Positions 808 through 9,977 of a stretch of DNA of 11,763 bases are shown piece by piece; the first letter of the stretch is position 1, and each line of letters opens with the position of its first letter. Location of the stretch: the NCBI GenBank assembly GCA_964244895.1, contig CAXTKV010000170.1:1-11763 (forward strand), written 5' to 3'. The DNA comes from an uncultured Deinococcales bacterium. Lineage in GTDB: Bacteria > Deinococcota > Deinococci > Deinococcales > JAAFIG01. The notes under the pieces were generated by a model. The model was not told the origin of the DNA, did no database searches, and saw only the letters and a list, made by a program, of their open reading frames with translations. Made by a program: the position numbers and the translations under genes.

Positions 808-839
808 AAGCTAAGAGTGGCGCGTCAGGTTTTTGTCAA
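808..839 (-). promoter_or_regulatory. Putative phoA promoter: 11-bp-period direct repeat (Pho-box-like) followed by a -10 element
   Basis: Minus strand reads TTGAC-AAAAAC-CTGAC-N10-TAGCTT ahead of the phoA RBS. The geometry matches OmpR/PhoB-family activated promoters. Confidence 0.5.
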
Positions 840-877
840 CTCGCGTTCTGGACTGTATTGATTCGCGTGCTGAAGCC

Positions 878-925
878 AAGACCGTCCAGCACGCGAATCT
901 AAAAATGCGTGCTGGACGGTGTTTC
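878..925. repeat. REP-like palindromic element, copy 1
   Basis: Perfect 14-bp inverted repeat ACCGTCCAGCACGC (881-894) / GCGTGCTGGACGGT (907-920) with a 12-nt loop. Degenerate right-arm fragments also occur at 841-859 and 860-872. Confidence 0.9.
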
Positions 926-1004
926 TGTTCACGGTGGCGCGTGTTGCGGGCGGTCGGTCATTGCTGTAGCGTCACCGGAAGTCTCGAGCTTGAGGACTTT
1001 GCTC

Positions 1005-1036
1005 TTGACGAAACCCTGAATTTCGCGCGGAAGACT
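1005..1036 (+). promoter_or_regulatory. Putative promoter of the small ORF (direct repeat plus -10-like hexamer, leaderless)
   Basis: TTGAC-GAAACC-CTGAA-N10-AAGACT-N6-ATG(1043). The spacing is identical to the phoA site. Confidence 0.4.
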
Positions 1037-1042
1037 CTGCGC

Positions 1043-1252
1043 ATGTCGAAACGACGCGAGACGTACATGAAAGAGGCCGCCAACCGTTTCCTCGAGAATT
1101 CCCGTTTCAGCACGCCCGCCGAAGCGGTCGAGGCGGGTGTCCGCACCATCAGCGAGTGGTGCGATTACCTGAACATCGCCCGCGCTCGCTACGGGTTGCA
1201 GCACGAACCCCTCGAGACGAACATCGCCTGGAACGAACCTCAGGCCGCCTGA
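1043..1252 (+). CDS. Hypothetical small protein (~69 aa, MSKRRETYMKEAANRFLENS...EPQAA)
   Basis: 3' part of ORF 833..1252, with GC-rich third codon positions. The upstream extension crosses a REP copy and is probably non-coding. A -10-like hexamer sits 6 nt before ATG 1043. Start is uncertain. Confidence 0.65.
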   Translation: MSKRRETYMKEAANRFLENSRFSTPAEAVEAGVRTISEWCDYLNIARARYGLQHEPLETNIAWNEPQAA

Positions 1253-1296
1253 GCGGATGGATCAGAAACAGCTCGAATCGAGCTATTTTGAGTAAC

Positions 1297-1361
1297 CGAG
1301 AAGACCGTCCAGCACGAGATATATCTGACTCGATGCTCAAGATTCGCGTCCTGGACGGTTT
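1297..1361. repeat. REP-like palindromic element, copy 2
   Basis: GAGAAGACCGTCCAGCACG...ATTCGCGTCCTGGACGGT, longer loop and one mismatch; lies between convergent genes. Confidence 0.85.
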
Positions 1362-1465
1362 TGGCTGATCCTGAAAAGAGTTCGGCGGGGTCAATCTCTT
1401 CACGCTCGCGCCTGTCCGAAGCCTCGGTCTCGAGTTTCGCGGAATGTGTAGGTGTTCCTCGAGCC

Positions 1466-3184
1466 TCAGTTCTTCAACTCGCGCGCGTAAATGTTGTGAT
1501 CCGCCGCGTTGACGAAAAGGGCGCGTCGACCGTCGGGTGAAAGTTGCCACTGGTCGTTCTCTATTTTCGCGTTCAGCGCGGCCAATGTTCTGGACGTGCC
1601 GGTGCGCGCATCGAATTCCATCAACTCGTGGCTCGGTGAGCGCAAGCCGAGCGGTACGTAGACGATCCGGTTCGCGTCTCGCCAACGGAGCGATCCGAAC
1701 CACGACGCGCGGCGCGACTGACCGGTGTTCGCATCCATCACGAAGGCGCCGTTGCGCGCGGCTGAATCGAAGGCGATCGTGTACGCGATCCAGCGCCCGC
1801 CGGGACTGAGGCTGAGGCTGCGAAAGTTGAGGGCTTTGACCAGCACGCGCGATTGGCCGCTTTGCACGTCCAGTACGCGCAAGCTGCGGTCGCGCTCGGT
1901 GGGGTCAGATTTCCCGGTGATCACCAACCGGTTCTCGTCCAGCCAGCCGACCACGCCGCCGCCGTACAGCCTGAGCGCGCGCTTCGGGCTGCTCGAGGTG
2001 AGCCTTGACGGCGCGCTGGTCAGGTTGGCGGTAAAAATATCCGTGGTCAGGCGGTCAAAATTGCCATTCAAAGCGGATACGCTCCACGCGATCCTGGCTT
2101 CGGATGGCGAGTACGACAGGTTGCCATCATTTGTCGGCAAGCTCACTCGGCGACCATCCGAGACGCGTTCCAGGATGCTGCGCGATCCCGGCAAGAGCGC
2201 GTAGCGTTCGCTCGGCGAGATGAACGCCACGCTCGAGAAGGCGGTTTTGATCGCGCCCGGTTCGTGCGGGTTGACGCCGTAGATGGCGGCGTTTCCGGGC
2301 TTGTCCACAGCTTTATCCACAAATAGAACGCGCGCGGAATCCGCGCTCCACGACGGGTTGGCGCAGCACCCGCCGGTCGTCAGTCGGATCTGTCCCAGGC
2401 TCGCGTCATCGTAGGAAGGCGGGACTGAAGGGAAAGCCTCGATTCTGCTCGGCCAGTTCTGGGCGGGGCTGCCGGGCGCGGGTGGCCACGGGCGCGCGAA
2501 TTCGTTCAGCAATCGTTGGCCGCGACGCGCCTGCGGTTGATCGTCCAGGCGCTGCCAGCGCCTCGGGTCGTTCAGATCCCGCTGGAAACCCCGCCCGAAG
2601 CTTCCGGCGAGTGCGAGCGTGCTCCAGTCGGCGTCGATGTACAAGACCGGGTTGAAGAAGCGCTGGTGCGAGGCGTCGCGCACCTCGAGGTGCAGGTGCG
2701 GCGCGCTGATGCAGGTGAACTGCGAATCGCCGGAAAGCCCAATCGGGTCGCCTCGTTTAACGCGCTGCCCGACGCGCACACCGGAACGTTTTTGCAGGTG
2801 CCCGTACAGGCTGGCCAGGTTGCCCGCGTGCAAAATCACCAGGTTGTGCGGCGGCGATCCGTGCGGGCCGTCGACTTCCGTGACGGTTCCGTCCCCGATG
2901 GCGCGCACGGTCGTACCGCACGGCGCGCTGAAATCCAGCCCGAAATGGATGCCCTGCCCGGCGCGGTAATCCGAATTCCTGCGCCGGTAGCCGCCCGTGG
3001 TGTTGCCGTAGGCCTGGGTGAACATCCACGAGTTCGGCCCCGGATCGCCCGCGAACGGCAACCCGAACTGGCGCGAGGGCGGCGCGATCCGGGCATCCGG
3101 CAGCGCTGGCGCGTAATGCGCCAGTCCGACCGCGCCAGCGCAGAGCGTCAGGACGAGCGTCAGGGCTTTCGGGGGTTTGGACAC
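1466..3184 (-). CDS. Exported M23-family metallopeptidase with C-terminal TolB/PD40-like beta-propeller
   Basis: Signal peptide; HxxxD (HFGLD), YGHL, VKRGDPIGLSGDS and HxH (PHLHLE) M23 motifs. The C-terminal half has repeated WSADS/ISPSE/YSPSE/LSPGG/LSPDG propeller-type turns. CATGAT lies 6 nt before the GTG start. Confidence 0.88.
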   Translation of the reverse strand: MSKPPKALTLVLTLCAGAVGLAHYAPALPDARIAPPSRQFGLPFAGDPGPNSWMFTQAYGNTTGGYRRRNSDYRAGQGIHFGLDFSAPCGTTVRAIGDGTVTEVDGPHGSPPHNLVILHAGNLASLYGHLQKRSGVRVGQRVKRGDPIGLSGDSQFTCISAPHLHLEVRDASHQRFFNPVLYIDADWSTLALAGSFGRGFQRDLNDPRRWQRLDDQPQARRGQRLLNEFARPWPPAPGSPAQNWPSRIEAFPSVPPSYDDASLGQIRLTTGGCCANPSWSADSARVLFVDKAVDKPGNAAIYGVNPHEPGAIKTAFSSVAFISPSERYALLPGSRSILERVSDGRRVSLPTNDGNLSYSPSEARIAWSVSALNGNFDRLTTDIFTANLTSAPSRLTSSSPKRALRLYGGGVVGWLDENRLVITGKSDPTERDRSLRVLDVQSGQSRVLVKALNFRSLSLSPGGRWIAYTIAFDSAARNGAFVMDANTGQSRRASWFGSLRWRDANRIVYVPLGLRSPSHELMEFDARTGTSRTLAALNAKIENDQWQLSPDGRRALFVNAADHNIYARELKN

Positions 3185-3249
3185 GGCTCGATCATGCGCT
3201 CAACGTCCGGTCTCTGGCGATGTGTCCGGTGACAATCGCTCGGGATGAT

Positions 3250-3318
3250 CTCGAGGATACTGTCCCGGACGGCATTTCTTGGGATACGATTTTTGCGTGT
3301 GCGACGGTGTTCTCTGAG
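3250..3318. repeat. REP-like palindromic element, copy 3 (degenerate)
   Basis: CTCGAGGATACTGTCCCGGACG...GCGTGTGCGACGGTGTTCTCTGAG. The outer arms match the family and pair with G-T wobbles. Confidence 0.65.
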
Positions 3319-3461
3319 AGCTTACCGACGAGGGTGAAAGCTCAACCTGAACCTCGAGCGCTCGCGATTTGAGCTCGGCTCGAGCGTGCTCTAACACCCT
3401 TACCCTGGCGCATCGGCATCTCGGAGAACGCCCTGAGGGTCGCGCGTCAGGGGATTGGATC

Positions 3462-4520
3462 TCAGCGAAAGTCGGAGAACCGATCCCGGTGAACCACGTA
3501 CACCACCCCGAGGGCCGCTGCCACCGCCAGCAGGCTCGAGACGCCGTAACTGACCAGCGGCAGGGTCAATCCGGTCACGGGCGCGAGCCCGATGGCCGCA
3601 CCCAGATTCTCGAGCACCTGAAAACCCAGCATCGCCATCACGCCACCGATCACCAGCCGATCCGTATCCGAAGGGCATTCGCCGCCCATGCCGGTCATTC
3701 GCCAGAACAGCAGGCCGTACATCACGATCAAAAAGGCCGCGCCCAGGAAGCCCTGTTCTTCCGCCCAGGGCGCGAAAATAAAATCCGTGTGGTCTTCGGG
3801 CACGAAATTGCCCTGCGATTGCGTGCCTTGCCGGTAGCCCTTGCCGGTCAGCCCACCCGAACCGATGGCGATGCGCGACTGGATCAACTGGTAGCCCTGG
3901 CCTCTGGCGTCCCGGTCGGGGTTGACGAAGATCGTCAGGCGGTTCTGCTGGTACGGTTTCAGGTGCGGCCAGACCAGGGTTGGGCTGGCCACCGCCACCA
4001 CCGCCAGCCCGATCAGCAGGTGACGCCACGGCACGCCGCGCGCCACGATCATGCCGACGATGATGGCCGAAAGCACCAGCGCGCCGCCCAGATCGCCCGT
4101 GCCGACCATCACCAGTCCCAGCATCGGCAAGGACACCGCCGCGATGGGCAGGTAATCGCGTGGGCTCCGGATCGGTCGGGTCATGACGCGCGCCAGCATC
4201 AAAATCAGCGCGATCTTGCCGAACTCGAGCGGTTGGAATTGAAAGAAACCGTGCCCCAGCCAGTTGCGGTTGCCGTTGACTTCCGTGCCGAAGAACATCG
4301 TCATCAACAGCAGAATCAGCGATAGCCCGTACAACGGGACGGCCAGCGCGTACAACCTCGAGCGTCCCAGCCACCACAGCGCGGCGATCGGCACGAGCGC
4401 CAGTCCAGCGCCCAACAATTGCTTCTGGAAGACATCGTGCTGGGCGACGCTCGAGACGGTCAGCAGCCCGATCCCGAGGATCACCGCGATGATGAATGGC
4501 AACCCGATTTCGCGCGACAC
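3462..4520 (-). CDS. rodA: SEDS-family peptidoglycan glycosyltransferase (RodA/FtsW), probably RodA
   Basis: About 10 hydrophobic segments; FQFQPLEFGK, LKPYQQNRL, GYQLIQSRIAIGSGGLTGKG, VPEDHTDFIF and PVTGLTLPLVSYG motifs. Confidence 0.9.
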   Translation of the reverse strand: MSREIGLPFIIAVILGIGLLTVSSVAQHDVFQKQLLGAGLALVPIAALWWLGRSRLYALAVPLYGLSLILLLMTMFFGTEVNGNRNWLGHGFFQFQPLEFGKIALILMLARVMTRPIRSPRDYLPIAAVSLPMLGLVMVGTGDLGGALVLSAIIVGMIVARGVPWRHLLIGLAVVAVASPTLVWPHLKPYQQNRLTIFVNPDRDARGQGYQLIQSRIAIGSGGLTGKGYRQGTQSQGNFVPEDHTDFIFAPWAEEQGFLGAAFLIVMYGLLFWRMTGMGGECPSDTDRLVIGGVMAMLGFQVLENLGAAIGLAPVTGLTLPLVSYGVSSLLAVAAALGVVYVVHRDRFSDFR

Positions 4521-4606
4521 GTTGACCTCGACTGGATTCTCTCCTTCCGGCGCGGCTTGAGGGTGAGAAGGCTCTCAATCTGCGCCCGCGTCGGGCAGGG
4601 TTGTAT

Positions 4607-4660
4607 CTCGAAGAACACCGTCCAGCACGCAATTCCAGAAACGTGTGCTGGACGGTGTTC
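4607..4660. repeat. REP-like palindromic element, copy 4
   Basis: GAACACCGTCCAGCAC (4613-4628) / GTGCTGGACGGTGTTC (4645-4660), a perfect 16-bp inverted repeat just after the dehydrogenase stop codon. Confidence 0.92.
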
Positions 4661-4664
4661 CGCT

Positions 4665-5552
4665 TCAATCCTTCTTCTCGAGCCCCAATTCCTGGCCCGC
4701 CCAGCGCTCCAAGAGTTGCGCGGCGGCCACGTGATCCACGTCCGGCCCGAGTTCGCGCAACGCGATCTCCAGCAGATTTTCCGTCAAGGAGGTCAACGGC
4801 GACGGCACGCGGCTCTCGCGCAGCGCCTGGGACGCGATCCGCACATCCTTGGCCATCAAACCCAGCGCGAAGGTCGCCGGAAACGCCCGACCCACGACGC
4901 GCTCCGGGAACAGGTTCATCGAAACGTTGGAACGCCCGCTCGAGGCGTTGATCACTTCCAGGGCGGTGGCGGTGCTGACCCCGGCCTTCTCGAGGCCCAA
5001 CAGCACCTCCGATAAGCCCAGGATGTTGATCGCCAACATCGCCTGGTTGGCGGCCTTGACCGCCATGCCCGCCCCAGATGGCCCGACGTGAACGACTTTC
5101 GCGGCGAAGGCGTCGATCGCGGGTCGGGCCGTCTCGAGCGCGGCGACCTCACCGCCGATCATGACGGTCAGTTTGCCGCCCACCGCGCCGCCCACACCGC
5201 CGGACACGGGCGCATCCAGAAACTGCACGCCTCTGGTTTCCAGCAACGCCTGAAGTGCTCGGGCGGTGGCGGGATCACCGGAGGTGCAATCCACCCAGAC
5301 CGCGCCCGGTTTGATGACTGTTAATGCTTCGTGCACCAGCGGCACGACTTCCTTCGAGGTCGGCACGCAACTGAAAATCACGTCCGCGCCCATCGCTTCA
5401 GTGACACTCGACACGGCTTTCGATCCGAACTCAAGCGCGTGCGTTTCGGCTTTGGCCGCCGTGCGGTTCCAGACGAGCGTCTCGAAACGTTTGGCCAGGT
5501 GACCCGCCATCGGGTAGCCCATCAGTCCCAATCCTAAAAAAGAGGCGCGCAT
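4665..5552 (-). CDS. NAD(P)-dependent beta-hydroxyacid dehydrogenase (3-hydroxyisobutyrate dehydrogenase/tartronate semialdehyde reductase family)
   Basis: FLGLGLMGYPMA Rossmann motif, FLDAPVSGG substrate motif, catalytic Lys in GMAVKAANQ, F.L.LMAKD. GAGAAT lies 6 nt before the ATG. Confidence 0.92.
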   Translation of the reverse strand: MRASFLGLGLMGYPMAGHLAKRFETLVWNRTAAKAETHALEFGSKAVSSVTEAMGADVIFSCVPTSKEVVPLVHEALTVIKPGAVWVDCTSGDPATARALQALLETRGVQFLDAPVSGGVGGAVGGKLTVMIGGEVAALETARPAIDAFAAKVVHVGPSGAGMAVKAANQAMLAINILGLSEVLLGLEKAGVSTATALEVINASSGRSNVSMNLFPERVVGRAFPATFALGLMAKDVRIASQALRESRVPSPLTSLTENLLEIALRELGPDVDHVAAAQLLERWAGQELGLEKKD

Positions 5553-5565
5553 GCCGCGATTCTCG

Positions 5566-5625
5566 CACGAGACGGCACCGTCTGGGACGTGAGTTGAAAT
5601 CTGCGTCCCAGACGGTGTTCTCGTG
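5566..5625. repeat. REP-like palindromic element, copy 5 (compensatory variant)
   Basis: CACCGTCTGGGACG (5576-5589) / CGTCCCAGACGGTG (5604-5617), perfect 14 bp, plus an outer CACGAGA/TCTCGTG pair. Confidence 0.88.
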
Positions 5626-5805
5626 GGTTATTCCTCGAGAACACCCGAATTTCACGAACGCGATCTCGAGCAGAACCCGATCAGACCGCTCAGGTTTGCA
5701 ATTCGCGTTTCAGCCCGAGATACCCAAAACCCGTCCAATCCGACTGGCGCGCGAGACTGACCGCAATAAAAGTGTCACTTCGCTGGGGAAAGTGTACTTC
5801 TCGCC

Positions 5806-5832
5806 TTGTCAATACGTTTTCAGGCGTATACT
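5806..5832 (+). promoter_or_regulatory. Putative sigma70 promoter TTGTCA-N15-TATACT
   Basis: Near-consensus hexamers with a short spacer, directly upstream of the small ORF. Confidence 0.45.
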
Positions 5833-5845
5833 CCGGGTGTTGCTT

Positions 5846-6142
5846 ATGCGACCCGCCTACTCCTACCCGCTCGGCCCACTGGCCGCCCCATCCGACACCG
5901 AAAGCGCTGCGACCCCATCCGTCCTGCGCGGCACGGCCCGAGAAGCCTTCCTGACGCGGCTTCACACCCGGCTCGTCAACCCGGAAGACGAAGTGCTTCT
6001 GGAGGATGAACTCGGACAGCCGTGGGTGGATCGTCCGATTCTGGATCTCTCGGACGAGCGCGAACTCGTGCAAGTCAGTTGGCGCGAGGTCTGCCTGAAC
6101 TGGCCGGACGCGATGTGCAACGACGACGCGGACAAAAAGTAA
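5846..6142 (+). CDS. Hypothetical acidic protein (~98 aa)
   Basis: 3' part of ORF 5594..6142 with GC-rich third positions, preceded by TATACT and followed by a terminator. In-frame GTG 5837 and TTG 5840 are alternative starts. Confidence 0.7.
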   Translation: MRPAYSYPLGPLAAPSDTESAATPSVLRGTAREAFLTRLHTRLVNPEDEVLLEDELGQPWVDRPILDLSDERELVQVSWREVCLNWPDAMCNDDADKK

Positions 6143-6162
6143 GCGCCAAAAACAACCCCACC

Positions 6163-6191
6163 AAAGCCCGAGCCTCGCGCTCGGGCTTTTT
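6163..6191. terminator. Intrinsic terminator, probably bidirectional
   Basis: AAAGCCCGAGC-CTCGC-GCTCGGGCTTTTT between convergent stop codons at 6142 and 6208. Confidence 0.85.
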
Positions 6192-6207
6192 CGCGCCTGA
6201 AAATGCC

Positions 6208-6834
6208 TCAGGTCGTCCAGCGCGAGAGAACCCGAGGTCCGAAGGTGTAATTCAACTGCACCAGCACGATAAAACCGATGCTCCAGTACGTGTTGAAAAC
6301 GCACAGGGCCGCACCGAGCGCATAGAGCGTCTGGGCGACCACGATCCGGCGCTTGATGACCACGGAAAGCTCAGCTGGCGTCTCCGGTCTAACCAGCCCC
6401 GCCCGGATCGCGTAAGTCCAACTGCCGTACAGCACGACCCCCAACAGCAGCACGTTCAGCCAGTAGATGATCAGCGCCGTGCGGAAGGTGATGAATTCTG
6501 CCAGCAAGTTCGTCGAAAACGGCATCAGCGCCACCGCCGCCAGGAACGCCAGGTGAATCCAGGAAAGCTGACGGTCCGCGCGGCTGAACTGGCTGAGTTG
6601 CGCCTGCTGCCCGACCCAGAAAATCCCGAGCGTCAAGAACGACAACAGGTACGTTGCCACGCGCGGCGAGAGCCCCGCCAGCGCGCGCCAGAGATCCTGC
6701 TCGGTCTGAACGCTTTCCGGCGATGGAACGCGAATCTCGAGCACGATCAAGGTCATGGCGATGGCGAACAGGCCGTCGCTCAGGGCAGCGATGCGCTCCA
6801 GGCTGGTCGCGGCGAACCGGTTGTATAAGCTCAT
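6208..6834 (-). CDS. TMEM175-family (DUF1211) potassium channel-like membrane protein, 208 aa
   Basis: RIAALSDGLFAIAMTLIVLEI (RxxxFSD-like TM1), YLLSFLTLGIFW and ALMPFST motifs; about 6 TM segments. Start placed at ATG 6834, with CATAGT 7 nt upstream, because the longer ORF runs through a REP copy. Confidence 0.9.
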   Translation of the reverse strand: MSLYNRFAATSLERIAALSDGLFAIAMTLIVLEIRVPSPESVQTEQDLWRALAGLSPRVATYLLSFLTLGIFWVGQQAQLSQFSRADRQLSWIHLAFLAAVALMPFSTNLLAEFITFRTALIIYWLNVLLLGVVLYGSWTYAIRAGLVRPETPAELSVVIKRRIVVAQTLYALGAALCVFNTYWSIGFIVLVQLNYTFGPRVLSRWTT

Positions 6835-6889
6835 CGGTTTCACTATGGCCTTCGGCGAAAACACAATCAAGGGTGCGCCCGGTGTTCCC

Positions 6890-6942
6890 CTCGAGAAGAC
6901 CGTCCTGCACGCATATCTCGATTCGCGTCCCGGACGGTGTTC
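6890..6942. repeat. REP-like palindromic element, copy 6
   Basis: CTCGAGAAGACCGTCCTGCACGC-N12-GCGTCCCGGACGGTGTTC between divergent genes. Confidence 0.85.
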
Positions 6943-7049
6943 CTGTGCTCGCCCAATTCTCGCCCGAGCCCCGCCCATCGCGCTAGAATGGCGTTCCACA
7001 GCCATGCTCGAGCCGAATCCCGGCCCGAGAACCCCAAAGAGGTGAGCGC

Positions 7050-8399
7050 ATGACGATCCCGACCAGCAAACAGGAACTTCACCAGCAACAGCACGCCAAA
7101 CACGTGCTCTCGTCGTGGGCGGTGCAGAGCACCATGGCGCAAGCCCCGGTCGCCGTGCGCGGCGAGGGGCGCTTCTTCTGGGACGAGGACGATAACAAGT
7201 ACCTCGACCTGGCCTCCGGGCTGGTCAGCACCAACCTCGGACACGGGCACAAGGCGGTCGTCAAGGCGATCCAGGATCAGGCCGCCAAACTCTGCTACGC
7301 CCCGACCTCGTACCTGAACGACAAACGCGCCGAACTGGGCGCGGCGCTCTCCGAACTCTCGCCGTGGGAAGAGGGCTGCCGCACGTTCTTCACCACCGGC
7401 GGCGCTGAAGCCAACGACGACGCCATCCGTCTGGCGCGCACCCTGACGGGCCGATTCAAGATCCTCGCGCCGTACCGCAGCTATCACGGCAGCACCGGAT
7501 TGAGCATCCAACTGACCGGCGAAGACCGCCGCTGGGGCAACGAACCCGCCATCTCGCCCGGCATCCTGCACTTCTGGGCTCCGTTCACGTACCGCAGCCC
7601 GTTCTTCACGCAAGACCCCGCCGAAGAAACCGCCAGGGCGCTCGAACACCTCGAGCGCACGCTCTTGCAAGAAAACCCCCAACGCGTCGCCGCGATCATC
7701 CTCGAGCCGATCGTCGGCACGAACGGCGTGATCGTCTACCCGGAAGGCTACCTGGCCGGATTGCGCCGCATCACCGAACAGCACGGCATCCTGTTGATCT
7801 TCGACGAGGTCATGACCGGTTTCGGGCGCACCGGATCGGCCTTCGCCAGCACGCGATTCAACGTCACACCCGACATCCTGACCTTCGCCAAAGGCGTCAC
7901 CAGCGCGTACTTGCCGCTCGGCGGCGTGATGGTGCGCGAAAGCCTGGCCAGGCACTTCGACACCAACGCCCTGCCGGTGGGTCACACCTACGCGGGCCAC
8001 CCGATGTCCTGCGCCGCCGGACTGGCGACCTTGCGCGCCTATCAGGAAGAAGGCATCTTTGACTACGCCAGAAACACCCTCGAGCCCTGGTTGCGCTCCG
8101 GCCTCAAGGAACTCGAATCCCGCCACGCCATCATCGGCGAGGCGCGCGGATTGGGCGCGTTCTGGGCGCTGGAATTCGTGAAAGACAAAGACACCCGCGA
8201 ACCCCTCGTGCCCTGGATGGGCGACGGCCCCGGCGTCATGAAACACTTCTACGCCGAACTCAAAAAACGCGGCGTCTACAGCTTCGGCAAGTTCAACGTC
8301 GCCATGGTCACACCACCCCTGACCACCACCCGCGAAGAACTCGACCTGGGTCTTGAGGCGCTCGACGCAGCCACCACCGCCCTGAACGCGATCATCTAA
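7050..8399 (+). CDS. Class III PLP-dependent (omega-amino acid/amine) aminotransferase
   Basis: YLDLASGL, GGAEAND, SYHG, ILEPIVG, LIFDEVMTGFGRTG, PDILTFAKG (PLP Lys) and GHTYAGHP motifs. RBS GAGGTG; TAGAAT at 6984-6989. Confidence 0.95.
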   Translation: MTIPTSKQELHQQQHAKHVLSSWAVQSTMAQAPVAVRGEGRFFWDEDDNKYLDLASGLVSTNLGHGHKAVVKAIQDQAAKLCYAPTSYLNDKRAELGAALSELSPWEEGCRTFFTTGGAEANDDAIRLARTLTGRFKILAPYRSYHGSTGLSIQLTGEDRRWGNEPAISPGILHFWAPFTYRSPFFTQDPAEETARALEHLERTLLQENPQRVAAIILEPIVGTNGVIVYPEGYLAGLRRITEQHGILLIFDEVMTGFGRTGSAFASTRFNVTPDILTFAKGVTSAYLPLGGVMVRESLARHFDTNALPVGHTYAGHPMSCAAGLATLRAYQEEGIFDYARNTLEPWLRSGLKELESRHAIIGEARGLGAFWALEFVKDKDTREPLVPWMGDGPGVMKHFYAELKKRGVYSFGKFNVAMVTPPLTTTREELDLGLEALDAATTALNAII

Positions 8400-8423
8400 A
8401 GCCTTCAACTCAGTCCAAACCTT

Positions 8424-8474
8424 CCGTCCCCGACGACCCTCTCAGCTCGAGAGAACACCGTCGGGGACGGTCTT
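8424..8474. repeat. REP-like palindromic element, copy 7 (rearranged); may act as terminator
   Basis: CCGTCCCCGACG (8424-8435) / CGTCGGGGACGG (8459-8470), followed by TCTTTT. Contains the family end CTCGAGAGAACACCGTC. Confidence 0.7.
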
Positions 8475-8648
8475 TTGCTGACACACCACGAAGCCGCGCA
8501 GCGGTGACGGAATTGCACACGACCCACCCCACCCCGGACGCTAATGTGAAACGGAAAACGCGAAAGAAATCCATCCAGGAGGTAAAACGCGAACGCACGC
8601 CAGAAACTACCAAAACCCCGCTCCCAGACGGCGAAACACGCCAAGCCT

Positions 8649-8680
8649 GTAAGAGAACCGTAAGTGCCCCGCGTTAAACT
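8649..8680 (+). promoter_or_regulatory. Putative major pilin promoter: direct repeat plus -10
   Basis: GTAAG-AGAACC-GTAAG-N10-TAAACT, about 100 nt upstream of the pilin start. Confidence 0.45.
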
Positions 8681-8782
8681 CAATCTCAGACAGCAAGAGG
8701 AACGACCTCGAGCGTCCAGAACTGCACACGGTTGACCGACCAATATAAATAAAACATTCGGTCAAACCACAAGGAGAAAGAC

Positions 8783-9154
8783 ATGAAGAACCGTAAGGCC
8801 CAAGGCTTCACCCTGATCGAGCTCCTGATCGTCATCGCCATCATCGGTATCCTCGCCGCCGTGCTCATCCCGAACCTGTTGAGCGCCCGCACCACCGCCC
8901 AGAAGCGCGCCGAGCAGGCCTACACGCAGAACGTCTTCAAGGCCGCCAACGCCTACATCGCCGACAACATCGCCGCCACCGCCCTGCCCTCCACCTCGTG
9001 CGTCGGCAGCTACACCGTGGGCAGCTACGGCGCAGGCTCCGGCCCGGCGACGCTGAGCGCCTGCACGGTCGCCTTCGTTGCTGCCACCCAGACGGTCACG
9101 GTCACGGCCACCAGCACCATCTCCGGCGTCGGTACCTTCACGGTCGGCAACTAA
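8783..9154 (+). CDS. pilA: Type IV pilin, probable major pilin (PilA4-like)
   Basis: MKNRKAQG|FTLIELLIVIAIIGILAAVLIPNL class III signal with E5; two Cys; strong RBS AAGGAG; strongly C/G-ending codons; own terminator. Confidence 0.92.
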   Translation: MKNRKAQGFTLIELLIVIAIIGILAAVLIPNLLSARTTAQKRAEQAYTQNVFKAANAYIADNIAATALPSTSCVGSYTVGSYGAGSGPATLSACTVAFVAATQTVTVTATSTISGVGTFTVGN

Positions 9155-9178
9155 ACCCCGCATCCGAACCTGGAACAC

Positions 9179-9212
9179 AACCCCTCGACGGCGCAAGCCG
9201 CCGGGGGGTTTG
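9179..9212 (+). terminator. Intrinsic terminator after pilin 1
   Basis: AACCCCTCG-A-CGGC-GCAA-GCCG-C-CGGGGGGTT-TG: stem with GNRA tetraloop and a short U tail. Confidence 0.7.
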
Positions 9213-9282
9213 GTATGAGCATCAAGATAAGATCGCCCTGATGTACGCGGGCGTCGTGATCAGGATGCTCCCCGAGGCGCAT

Positions 9283-9687
9283 ATGTCCCAGAAACCGCTT
9301 CCTTCTCAGCGTCAAATACAGTTTCCTCAGTCAGACGGGTTCACCCTGATCGAGTTGTTGATTGTTATCGCTATTATCGGCATTCTGGCCGCTGTGCTGA
9401 TCCCCAACCTGATGAGCGCCCGTAAGGTCAGTCAGAATCGCGCGGCCCAGGCATATGGACAGAACGTGTATAAGGCAGCCAACGCCTATCTGTCGGAATT
9501 CCCCAGCGCGACCACGAGCGACATAGTCAACCCGGATTGCAAAGCCGGGTACGCGACCGGCAACTACAGCGTGGCAAATCCGGGGACGGGCGTGCAAAGC
9601 TGCCGCGTCGAACCGGATGCGAATGGCAACGGAGCGCGCGTCGTGGTCGTCAGTATCAACAGCACGACCTTTACCGTCGGTTTGTAA
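9283..9687 (+). CDS. Second type IV pilin paralog (134 aa)
   Basis: MSQKPLPSQRQIQFPQSDG|FTLIELLIVIAIIGILAAVLIPNL; GAGG upstream of ATG 9283; aligns with pilin 1 over the mature chain (AY.QNV.KAANAY, two Cys, TFTVG). Confidence 0.88.
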   Translation: MSQKPLPSQRQIQFPQSDGFTLIELLIVIAIIGILAAVLIPNLMSARKVSQNRAAQAYGQNVYKAANAYLSEFPSATTSDIVNPDCKAGYATGNYSVANPGTGVQSCRVEPDANGNGARVVVVSINSTTFTVGL

Positions 9688-9702
9688 GCAAAATAGTTGC
9701 TC

Positions 9703-9738
9703 TGAAGGGTGTCCTCGAGATCTCGAGGACACCCTTCA
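9703..9738. repeat. Perfect 36-bp palindrome with no loop
   Basis: TGAAGGGTGTCCTCGAGA|TCTCGAGGACACCCTTCA. Confidence 0.95.
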
Positions 9739-9834
9739 ATAATCCTTGGGTTTTTGCGAAAAGCCGTTCAGGCTCGAGCGTTGCACTCGAGATGACCAAA
9801 CATCTCCGATCGGGTTTCCGTTTTTGCTTCAGCA

Positions 9835-9880
9835 AAAACACCGTCGTGGACGCGCCGAAATATTCGTGTGCTGGACGGTA
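9835..9880. repeat. REP-like palindromic element, copy 8
   Basis: AACACCGTCGTGGACGCG-N10-CGTGTGCTGGACGGTA; imperfect stem. Confidence 0.8.
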
Positions 9881-9977
9881 TCGCGTACAAACTGCCAATC
9901 TCGTCCTACGTCCCACCGCTTCGATCTCGAGGTGCAAACGCACCGAGAAACCCGCCAGCGGCGTCTATAGTCCACCT

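Follow-up and report, generated by a model that had tools for sequence, protein, structure and literature searches.

Paired palindromes with two spacings one helical turn apart, restricted to one genus, and their possible role as protein docking sites

Palindromes between bacterial genes are customarily read as mobile hairpins or as RNA structures. In the window analysed here, the whole 11,763-nt stretch from contig CAXTKV010000170.1 of an uncultured Deinococcales bacterium (assembly GCA_964244895.1), one palindrome family occupies 8 of 10 intergenic gaps. Genes were called within this analysis, giving 12 genes in the window with 10 true gaps and one overlap; Pfam names 8 of the 11 window ORFs tested, two of which are pilin genes. 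All eight copies reported in an earlier note on this DNA are present and intergenic (three divergent gaps, one convergent and four tandem), and none lies inside a CDS, as the note had observed, with in-gene copies existing elsewhere in the genome. The note had described each copy as a single stem, which had to be revised, since each really consists of two 25-bp units. The features are listed below with unit scores in bits, the working PWM threshold for a unit being 14 bits.

Weak extra unit, 837..861, minus strand: 39 bp upstream of copy 1; 9 bits, sub-threshold and uncertain.
Copy 1, 876..925, no strand: units 876-900 and 901-925, centres 25 bp apart, 28 and 37 bits; divergent gap following the alkaline phosphatase gene.
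Copy 2, 1299..1364, no strand: units 1299-1323 and 1340-1364, centres 41 bp apart (a rare class, 11 genome-wide), 29 and 26 bits; convergent gap.
CTCGAG word, 3250..3255, no strand: in register at the outer end of copy 3.
Copy 3, 3254..3313, no strand: units 3254-3278 (left, degenerate) and 3289-3313, centres 35 bp apart, 12 and 24 bits; tandem gap between the M23 peptidase gene and rodA.
Copy 4, 4612..4661, no strand: units 4612-4636 and 4637-4661, centres 25 bp apart, 37 and 34 bits; tandem gap, the copy ending 3 nt from a stop codon.
Copy 5, 5572..5621, no strand: units 5572-5596 and 5597-5621, centres 25 bp apart, 14 and 33 bits; divergent gap, with a matched TGGG/CCCA change (fold).
CTCGAG word, 6890..6895, no strand: in register at the outer end of copy 6.
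Copy 6, 6894..6943, no strand: units 6894-6918 and 6919-6943, centres 25 bp apart, 34 and 30 bits; divergent gap.
Copy 7, 8417..8476, no strand: strong unit 8452-8476 (25 bits) and decayed left partner 8417-8441 (sub-threshold, placed by sequence reading and fold), centres 35 bp apart; tandem gap ahead of the first pilin gene.
Copy 8, 9835..9884, no strand: units 9835-9859 and 9860-9884, centres 25 bp apart, 15 and 22 bits; tandem gap behind the second pilin gene.

Copy 3 is also found at the same place in a related strain's contig, with 7 listed differences from 3249 to 3309. The two copy-free gaps had been credited with classic terminators; this holds on direct reading for 6142-6208 (an 8-bp GC stem and five T) and less well for 9154-9355 (an imperfect hairpin and only three T), and neither was among the hits of the terminator scan. 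The outer CTCGAG, which the note had included in the repeat, does not belong to it: of the 16 ends in the window 2 carry it in register, as do 398 of 3,142 over the whole genome; 10 of 1,571 pairs have it at both ends (about 25 expected under independence), and the left CACGAG of copy 5 is shifted from the register by 2 nt. CTCGAG is a word in its own right, found family-wide, that often adjoins the element without being intrinsic to it, and like a HIP it is over-represented throughout genes, unlike the 25-bp unit.

At 14 bits or more the genome yields 4,129 palindromic units in 2,533 clusters (about 2,500 elements), against just 5 units in the reversed genome, so that copies number in the thousands, as had been guessed. 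They make up about 2.4% of the genome, with approximately one palindromic site per 1.5 to 2 kb of chromosome. The unit is a 25-bp dyad with a 3-bp centre and the consensus core ACCGTC-N3-SACG, whose positions are 96-99% conserved while the remaining positions drift; position frequencies show that base identity in the core is fixed beyond what pairing alone would give, and that the unit and its flanks lack the GTAG/GGAG tetramer, as the note had remarked. The exact core 13-mer occurs 1,268 times in the host genome and 0 to 7 times in each of 40 relatives, and is at background level in every sampled genome of the order Deinococcales. The family is thus the lineage-specific repeat that had been proposed: it is restricted to one genus and absent from sister genera, and congeners keep copies at orthologous places with about 80% identity, the variable positions turning over. 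Rfam gave no match at any gathering score.

Distances between the centres of neighbouring units fall almost entirely into two classes (752 at 25 and 102 at 26 bp; 469 at 35 and 162 at 36 bp), every other distance up to 130 bp being represented by at most 23 cases. The two classes differ by one helical turn, and in the 1,573 pairs genome-wide the outer halves are inverted copies of each other (terminal inverted repeats). We put at about even the chance that the elements are selected docking sites on double-stranded DNA for a putative oligomeric DNA-wrapping protein that organises the chromosome. A point against this model is that, with 10.5 bp to the turn, the spacings of 25 and 35 bp come to about 2.4 and 3.4 turns and not to whole numbers.

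The note had further taken compensatory changes in copy 5 as a sign of conserved pairing. The matched change in that copy is real, but as a genome-wide rule covariation between arms is confined to the 25/26 class: it is strong in the 25 class (z 17), and the 35 and 36 classes have none (349 against 353 expected; 112 against 112). Matched arm changes were also seen at two orthologous loci in congeners. Pure duplex binding predicts neither these changes nor the 25-class covariation, which counts against the docking model; under that model arm matching in the short class would come from hairpin-templated repair of the 19-bp stem and not from a hairpin function. Covariation also bears on the reading as RNA-level hairpins that end or protect transcripts, which we consider very improbable. 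Many copies begin within 10 nt past a stop codon, window copies fold at -16 to -35 kcal/mol, covariation in tandem gaps is higher near stops (z 10.0, n=264) than far from them (z 1.9, n=86), and U-tract terminators occur in 2 of 104 short convergent gaps with a copy versus 7 of 29 without one, all of which would fit such a role. However, there is no G.U excess (G.U 890 versus A.C 990, six subsets pooled), covariation is equally strong in divergent gaps (where 342 clusters lie), the phased pattern described below extends on both sides, and U-tract terminators are no rarer here than in element-free relatives.

Flanking DNA carries a phased A/T pattern with a period of about 11.5 bp that reaches about 100 bp (amplitude 0.032 at 11.6 bp, at most 0.006 in the jittered control) and vanishes beyond 90-160 bp. 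Its phase, counted from the outer unit, is identical in all four spacing classes, and it is as strong in divergent as in tandem or convergent gaps, with no difference among codon positions 1-3. The signal is unchanged in the 2,700 of 2,912 flanks free of relic units, and two sets of control anchors (stop codons and CTCGAG) were flat. Since the whole genome shows an 11.3-bp period, the flank signal may be the phasing of a general property.

Along the chromosome, 2,262 of the 2,533 clusters lie in internal intergenic gaps, usually one per gap, and counts per gap are under-dispersed across all gap sizes. Neighbouring elements repel each other under 1 kb: the odds ratio for both gaps flanking a gene being occupied is 0.29, 0.41, 0.49, 0.69 and 0.84 as gene length rises, and a model of occupancy that includes gap size, context and gene length retains a distance term (z 9.1, n=1,970). 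The median distance from an in-gene copy to the closest intergenic one is 1,076 bp (n=92), compared with 607 bp for random gene positions (p 9e-10), so that in-gene copies fill long holes between intergenic ones. Repulsion is local, global spacing being no more even than under a one-per-gap null (CV 0.63 versus 0.64). Elements are lost from accessory or recently acquired DNA, copies have no polarity relative to transcription or to neighbouring copies, and occupancy is unrelated to codon-bias rank, a proxy for expression.

Placement and geometry also allow a topology site that acts without a protein or through gyrase, in which cruciform or bent DNA pins supercoil tips or attracts gyrase, in the manner of E. 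coli BIME-2; we regard this as improbable. As for a cruciform, short-class arms are complementary in all gap types without G.U bias; occupancy peaks in convergent gaps; and the E. coli gyrase motif, with its phased G/C flanks over about 130 bp and its enrichment in BIME-2, offers a precedent in the part of its description considered here (PMC6379681). That motif, however, is described there as degenerate, following transcription and having a flank period of 10-10.7 bp, whereas the period here is 11.3-11.6 bp and occupancy is unlinked to expression level. Moreover, the 35/36 classes lack covariation, the core is fixed by base identity and not just by pairing, and promoter avoidance would give the same convergent preference.

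Between 112 and 174 clusters, about 5%, lie in genes (112 of 2,533 more than 60 nt inside well-scored genes). The full pair in PheT shows no alignment gap against any of the family orthologues (8 of 8), ancestral bases surviving between its cores, and therefore arose in place; the unit region of AlaRS is gap-free in 5 of 5 orthologues. Among the 23 testable in-gene clusters (of the 112), 10 of the 17 single units bring in 0 extra residues, and one of the 6 pairs has a length that would allow an insertion; a pair in the FtsK linker adds 19 of 21 residues. In genes the core was observed 240 times, against 67-89 in three synonymous shuffles, and in-gene copies favour certain reading frames. Gaps give another picture: those holding an element are a median of 83 bp longer than the same gaps in other genera (n=49; others +2.5 bp, n=54, p 9e-5), which favours insertion there, with p 0.16 when the gain is compared with that of 25 long empty gaps. 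Observations on arrival by insertion are divided, in-gene copies mostly adding no DNA and element-bearing gaps being longer.

These data weigh on the alternative of an orphan mobile hairpin of REP/REPIN or MITE type, copied early in the genus and now decaying or lightly exapted, its enzyme lost or unassembled, which we think unlikely. Like REP dimers (as characterised in part in PMC3733652), the elements are two small inverted palindromes, mostly intergenic and close behind stops. Longer gaps at elements and the FtsK pair are in its favour, as is a congener that has a pair where genome G000 has a single unit, with a length difference of 36 bp. Element edges are sharp and a few copies are near-identical (the same 50-bp copy recurs without change at two loci whose flanks are unrelated, and 48 pairs show at most 3 differences), and an assembly that is 91% complete with collapsed repeats could hide the enzyme. 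Against it, there is no tag, and the target duplications that the earlier note had suggested looking for did not appear (the highest z among 2,527 tests, over 1,467 pairs, was 3.3), which together with the in-gene copies argues against its MITE reading. Subfamily structure is slight (nearest neighbour at 6.6 mismatches versus 7.0 in block shuffles), whereas in a control family of GTAG REPs 35 of 101 copies have a neighbour within 5 mismatches (shuffled minimum 13); the middles of pairs are nearly all unique (740 of 747 distinct). Origin in place in PheT and AlaRS, repulsion with hole-filling, and cores kept while the rest drifts also speak against mobility. The sole RAYT-like gene in the 91% complete assembly (C12, whose E value of 7e-13 falls short of the family cut-off) is not flanked by the repeat as had been envisaged: it lies 1.4-1.5 kb from the nearest pairs, and ordinary GTAG REPs stand in front of the gene and within it. 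The host genome has, separately from the element, a true GTAG REP family with its RAYT. No reverse transcriptase was found. In this assembly, which collapses repeats, none of the 4 long repeated segments has a unit at its end, and contig ends are not enriched for units (24 of 656, 28 expected).

Several of the same observations would suit an uptake signal for DNA, the third independent kind, in which a surface receptor prefers site-bearing fragments and biased uptake with recombination leads to a high, even density; this too seems unlikely, and slightly more so. Uptake sequences, in the accounts drawn on here (PMC2397512, PMC2817400), arise in place, are evenly spread, show a frame preference, form inverted intergenic pairs and are missing from recently acquired DNA, and origin in place, spread, frame bias, inverted pairs and absence from acquired DNA are all seen here. 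ComEC is present and the window has its two pilin genes; however, ComEC matches also occur in 10 of 14 control genomes, and its presence therefore says little on uptake. Known uptake sequences are short and non-palindromic, with 34.5-65% in ORFs (PMC2817400, as far as its account was used), in contrast to a 25-bp dyad with so few clusters in genes, and a receptor for one word leaves the two-class spacing and the 100-bp phased flank unexplained.

Returning to docking sites, a binding protein, which the note had named as a possible partner, is in our interpretation the likeliest one. A putative dimer would read each 25-bp unit, and two dimers would sit together on one helix face, giving classes one turn apart; the protein would bend or wrap about 250 bp, a wrapping that the flank pattern would record. 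Selection would act on site density, with a mutual spacing of about 1.5 kb, and copying may have seeded the first intergenic copies. No candidate emerged among HU (3 copies here versus 2-3 in 12 family genomes), GyrA (one, of ordinary length), the Lrp family (6 here versus 4-9 in 9 family genomes) or 20 hand-picked highly expressed small proteins out of 4,614 called in total. A bolder form, which we hold possible though short of probable, is a sequence-programmed chromatin, with an oligomer on paired palindromes every 1.5 kb that wraps about 250 bp and selection that rewrites codons of essential genes. If true, it would give bacteria an equivalent of positioned nucleosomes or insulator arrays; we know of no high-information architectural site set of comparable density.

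The family fails several mobile-hairpin and RNA tests and bears three signs of a distance-dependent function in duplex DNA: its helical geometry, the phasing of its flanks and a self-spacing that extends even to essential genes. If a protein reads the element, this would be a new mode of bacterial chromosome organisation, with a short defined pull-down substrate in hand; if it is an uptake signal, it would be a third independent origin of self-DNA preference. Because sister genera are without the element, its gain is datable and the partner gene findable by comparison.

A model for how the paired palindromes may act is the phage 186 CI wheel, in the published portion considered here an oligomer that binds palindromes spaced by two or three turns and wraps 150-180 bp, non-specific flanks included (PMC3675496): dyad sites and spacings differing by whole turns are shared, whereas the phage has few sites at one switch and other spacings, and here, with some 2,500 sites chromosome-wide, no such protein emerged among the candidates examined. 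The gyrase motif and BIME-2, as far as described in PMC6379681, resemble the element in having repeats as hot spots and a central core with phased flanks, which here have another period and reach about 100 bp; unlike that motif, the element has a core that hardly varies, and its occupancy does not follow codon-bias rank. DUS/USS also reach thousands of copies, the element differing from their available descriptions (PMC2397512, PMC2817400) as a long dyad in pairs of fixed geometry that is rarely in genes. HIP1 and alternative HIPs, outlined in PMC4390886 as 5-8-nt words throughout genes, match CTCGAG of this family and not the 25-bp element. The small non-coding repeats of Deinococcus radiodurans (60-215 bp, at least one mobile; summary in PMC11276467) are likewise dispersed, non-coding and from the same order, in whose sampled genomes the core 13-mer is at background. 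CGTC-tagged REPs have an unpaired end-tag CGTC, an 8-9-bp stem, a 4-5-nt loop and a CCA tail (Di Nocera et al. 2013, PMC3733652, whose available text mentions neither Deinococcus nor Thermus); the element, too, contains CGTC, forms inverted dimers, prefers unlike partners and has no dedicated transposase, yet compared with that text its CGTC is internal and paired, on either side of the 3-bp centre. With GTAG REPs, REPINs and BIMEs, as sketched in the portions used of PMC3733652 and PMC6006769, it shares short, high-copy, lineage-specific intergenic palindromes that are often inverted dimers; unlike GTAG REPs and REPINs so described, it is without an unpaired tag, an adjacent cognate RAYT or clear subfamilies, has two strict spacings one turn apart and phased flanks, and shows origin in place in several conserved genes and mutual repulsion of its copies.

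The source genome (G000) was available as an assembly of 5.12 Mb in 328 contigs (62.7% G+C, 91% complete) and is the sole member of its genus among the genomes sampled, in a family of 19 genomes. Genome-wide gene coordinates were obtained with our own hexamer-based caller, yielding 4,614 genes (81% coding). The window carries the following features:

Alkaline phosphatase gene (Pfam)
1043-1252, 69-aa ORF with a good coding score, without Pfam match
M23 peptidase gene (Pfam)
RodA gene (Pfam)
NAD-dependent dehydrogenase gene (Pfam)
5846-6142, 98-aa ORF with a good coding score, without Pfam match
TMEM175 channel gene (Pfam)
Class III aminotransferase gene (Pfam)
8783-9687, two tandem type IV pilin-type genes (Pfam)
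After the two pilin-type genes, 505-aa membrane-rich ORF, without Pfam match

Named homologues of RodA stand at about 69% ("Deinococcales bacterium") and 50-57% (Deinococcus and Truepera species). All eight copies of the repeat that the earlier note had placed in the window were recovered, occupying 8 of its 10 gaps. Across the genome, CCGTC..GACGG pairs peaked at inner distances of 28, 29, 38 and 39 (667, 112, 384 and 155 counts), where five control pentamers gave no peak, and also at a distance of 3 (251 counts), identifying the building block as a 25-bp dyad with a consensus of about AGAACACCGTC-N3-SACG.. (28.5 bits). A weight-matrix scan detected 4,129 units (the reversed genome gave 5), which we grouped into 2,533 clusters comprising 1,573 pairs, 949 single units (437 of them accompanied by a weak partner at about the usual spacings) and 11 larger clusters. 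Neighbouring units were spaced by 25 bp (752), 26 bp (102), 35 bp (469) or 36 bp (162), and clusters were located in tandem (1,407), convergent (513) and divergent (342) gaps, in called genes (174) and at contig ends (97). An origin of pairs by direct duplication was rejected, as direct matches were not in excess. An IHF-like motif was found between units in only 2 of 462 and 1 of 162 cases.

The element proved as abundant and lineage-specific as the earlier note had supposed: its exact core 13-mer occurs 1,268 times in G000, counts in the 40 relatives examined, which include 18 genomes of the same family, range from 0 to 7, and a scan of 1.1 Mb of relatives' DNA detected 3 units. A search of 10 genomes of sister genera (about 0.58 Mb sampled) turned up no further abundant word or spaced dyad that could be a dialect of the element, an 80-kb sample of G000 yielding 62 units as a positive control. 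Searches with the paired pattern returned 0 matches in GTDB genomes, IMG/VR and phages, a single chance match in plasmids (E 0.6), and 8 metagenome loci, of which 5 were of the G000 lineage type and 3 were unrelated and set aside. We also observed, on an unrelated metagenome contig of 42% G+C (L008:2513-2590), one long perfect palindrome with similar arms, which is probably due to chance. Four of the 5 element-bearing metagenome contigs have an orthologous region in G000 (76-84% identity), and the element lies at the same place in the three aligned cases (spacing of 26 vs 25, 25 vs 25, and a pair vs a single unit). Long element-free contigs of G000 carry accessory genes, a plasmid-type RepA, a BREX component and a DDE transposase (50 genes scanned on 4 contigs), with a normal CTCGAG density. 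An Rfam search, as the earlier note had proposed, gave 8 weak matches, none close to the gathering score, and no description of the family was found in the literature listings searched.

The element may have had a mobile origin followed by later capture, which may also combine with a docking role. Copying is suggested by a 50-bp pair found identically at two places whose flanks are unrelated, by 48 pairs of copies within 3 mismatches, and by element-bearing gaps being longer than in relatives (+83 bp, vs +2.5 bp for the comparison gaps); however, no target duplication was found, 740 of 747 pair middles are distinct, and subfamily structure is weak, nearest-neighbour copies differing at 6.6 of 50 bases vs 7.0-7.5 in shuffles. 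The GTAG REPs of G000, about 100 of which are dispersed through the genome, form tight subfamilies, unlike the element. Pfam Y1_Tnp gave no match in G000, a blank that was misleading, since a single gene was picked up with the NCBIfam RAYT model:

L053:1405-1971 (a DNA piece from contig C12 of G000), RAYT-like gene with one GTAG REP upstream and one inside the reading frame

This arrangement resembles the described subclass 2.4. The earlier note had proposed a search for a transposase or HUH/RAYT gene flanked by the repeat; the RAYT-like gene is not flanked by the element. No reverse transcriptase was found in G000.

Several copies inside conserved genes point to an origin of the element in place. 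We identified 112 clusters deep in genes, where the core occurs at about three times the synonymous-shuffle level with a strong reading-frame preference. In PheT (identity confirmed), a 36-bp-spaced pair aligns without gaps to 8 of 8 family orthologues; the bases between the cores are the relatives' codons, and only core positions have shifted to the consensus, altering residues. One unit in AlaRS aligns in the same way to 5 of 5 orthologues. We then counted residues gained in the 23 in-gene cases with an available homologue: single units (n = 17) added 0 residues in 10 cases and between -2 and +4 in 6, the remaining case, a poor alignment, giving 21, and pairs (n = 6) added 0, 3, 6, 6, 19 and -22, where insertion would need 17-21. 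Weak single units are lesser evidence for an in-place origin than the PheT pair. For a further in-gene case, on contig C256, none of 5 genomes supplied a homologue.

Gaps hold one copy at any length (mean 0.70-0.91, variance 0.24-0.38). The odds ratio for both gaps beside a gene being filled was 0.29 for genes under 500 bp and rose to 0.84 for those over 1,500 bp, and the distance to the next copy predicted gap occupancy (z 9.1) in a model with gap size, context and gene length. In-gene copies lay a median of 1,076 bp from the nearest intergenic copy, vs 607 bp for random gene positions. Speaking against spacing by distance, the overall regularity (CV 0.63) does not exceed that of a one-per-gap null (0.64), although it is far above that of free placement (1.28).

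A/T content oscillates outward from the element with a period of 11.6 bp nearby and about 11 bp further out, at an amplitude of 0.032 (jittered controls reach no more than 0.006), and dies away beyond 100 bp; the whole genome has an 11.3-bp period. The phase is set by the outer unit in all four spacing classes. The pattern does not differ between gap types or among codon positions 1, 2 and 3; at four-fold sites it is uncertain and of lower amplitude (0.009 +/- 0.005), around in-gene cores it is weakly present (0.015 vs a jitter maximum of 0.013), and with anchoring on stop codons or CTCGAG it is absent. Relic units were rejected as the source of the flank period, which persisted after removal of flanks that bear them, as were protein helices and stop codons.

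Covariation was counted directly. In the 25 class (centre spacing in bp), variable stem columns matched at 5.42 vs 4.98 after reshuffling of halves (z 17, n = 747), and the excess is seen in all three gap contexts; where both arms were off consensus, they were complementary 419 times vs 348 expected, and matched in-place changes of both arms were seen at two orthologous loci. No covariation was detected in the 35 and 36 classes (349 vs 353 expected; 112 vs 112), and columns 19-22 are biased against pairing whatever the class. On the transcribed strand G.U was not favoured over A.C (890 vs 990, six subsets), one class-36 subset leaning toward G.U (86 vs 58). The compensatory change noted earlier in copy 5 is thus real, but conserved pairing is not general and gives no pointer to RNA. 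Arm matching in the short class may come from repair templated by a hairpin with a long stem and a short loop; a cruciform role is an alternative source. A role of the element as terminator replacement was not seen; U-tract terminators are scarce in every sampled genus (2-14 per 100 kb above shuffles). No significant polarity to replication or transcription was found, and a weak trend was not upheld.

The earlier note had included an outer CTCGAG in the repeat. This was not borne out, as CTCGAG adjoins 398 of 3,142 outer ends of pairs (just 10 of the 1,571 pairs have it at both ends) and no covariation is seen between flank positions; it is separate from the element. With 21,883 occurrences in G000 (9.8 times the order-2 expectation), a density of 4.3-6.8 per kb in every one of the 19 family genomes vs at most 2.9 in 22 others, and in-gene copies mostly in frame 0 at about four times the synonymous-shuffle level, CTCGAG is a HIP-like word of the family, not found described as a HIP in the literature listings searched. 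The reverse word, GAGCTC, is avoided. Several palindromic hexamers are strongly avoided genome-wide (CGGCCG at 0.009 of expectation, CCCGGG 0.027, CCGCGG 0.11), which suggests many restriction systems, past or present. Separately, a perfect 36-bp palindrome around two CTCGAG words lies just past the second pilin gene (9703-9738), sharing its gap with copy 8, and a CRISPR-like repeat containing CTCGAG is present in 19 copies on contig C36 and once on C240.

The best fit to the element would be an oligomeric protein bound to two dyads and wrapping the adjoining DNA, given the fixed-identity dyad, two spacings one turn apart, phased bendable flanks, distance-based spacing and independence of strand, expression and polarity; selection would then maintain about one site per 1.5 kb. 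No candidate reader was found among HU, GyrA, Lrp and 20 small highly expressed proteins, in a scan of a minority of called proteins. G000 encodes three HU paralogues (C10, C103, C117), two divergent and one with very high codon bias, the usual family number being 2-3; the candidate-protein search also returned 11 tyrosine recombinase matches and one N6/N4 methylase match. An uptake sequence also fits, by its evolutionary signature more than by its anatomy, as described in PMC2397512 and PMC2817400. Under either main rival, mobile hairpin or uptake signal, the element would fall within an already known kind.

We compared the element with known systems, including the E. coli gyrase motif (PMC6379681). 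It lacks defining features of MITEs, GTAG REPs (PMC3733652, PMC6006769), uptake sequences (PMC2397512, PMC2817400) and HIPs (PMC4390886), and also of CGTC REPs (PMC3733652) as these are described in the text of that paper; the small repeats of D. radiodurans (PMC11276467) were compared by description and not by sequence. We class the element as new by its combination of features, the nearest working model for its putative binding being the phage 186 CI wheel (PMC3675496).
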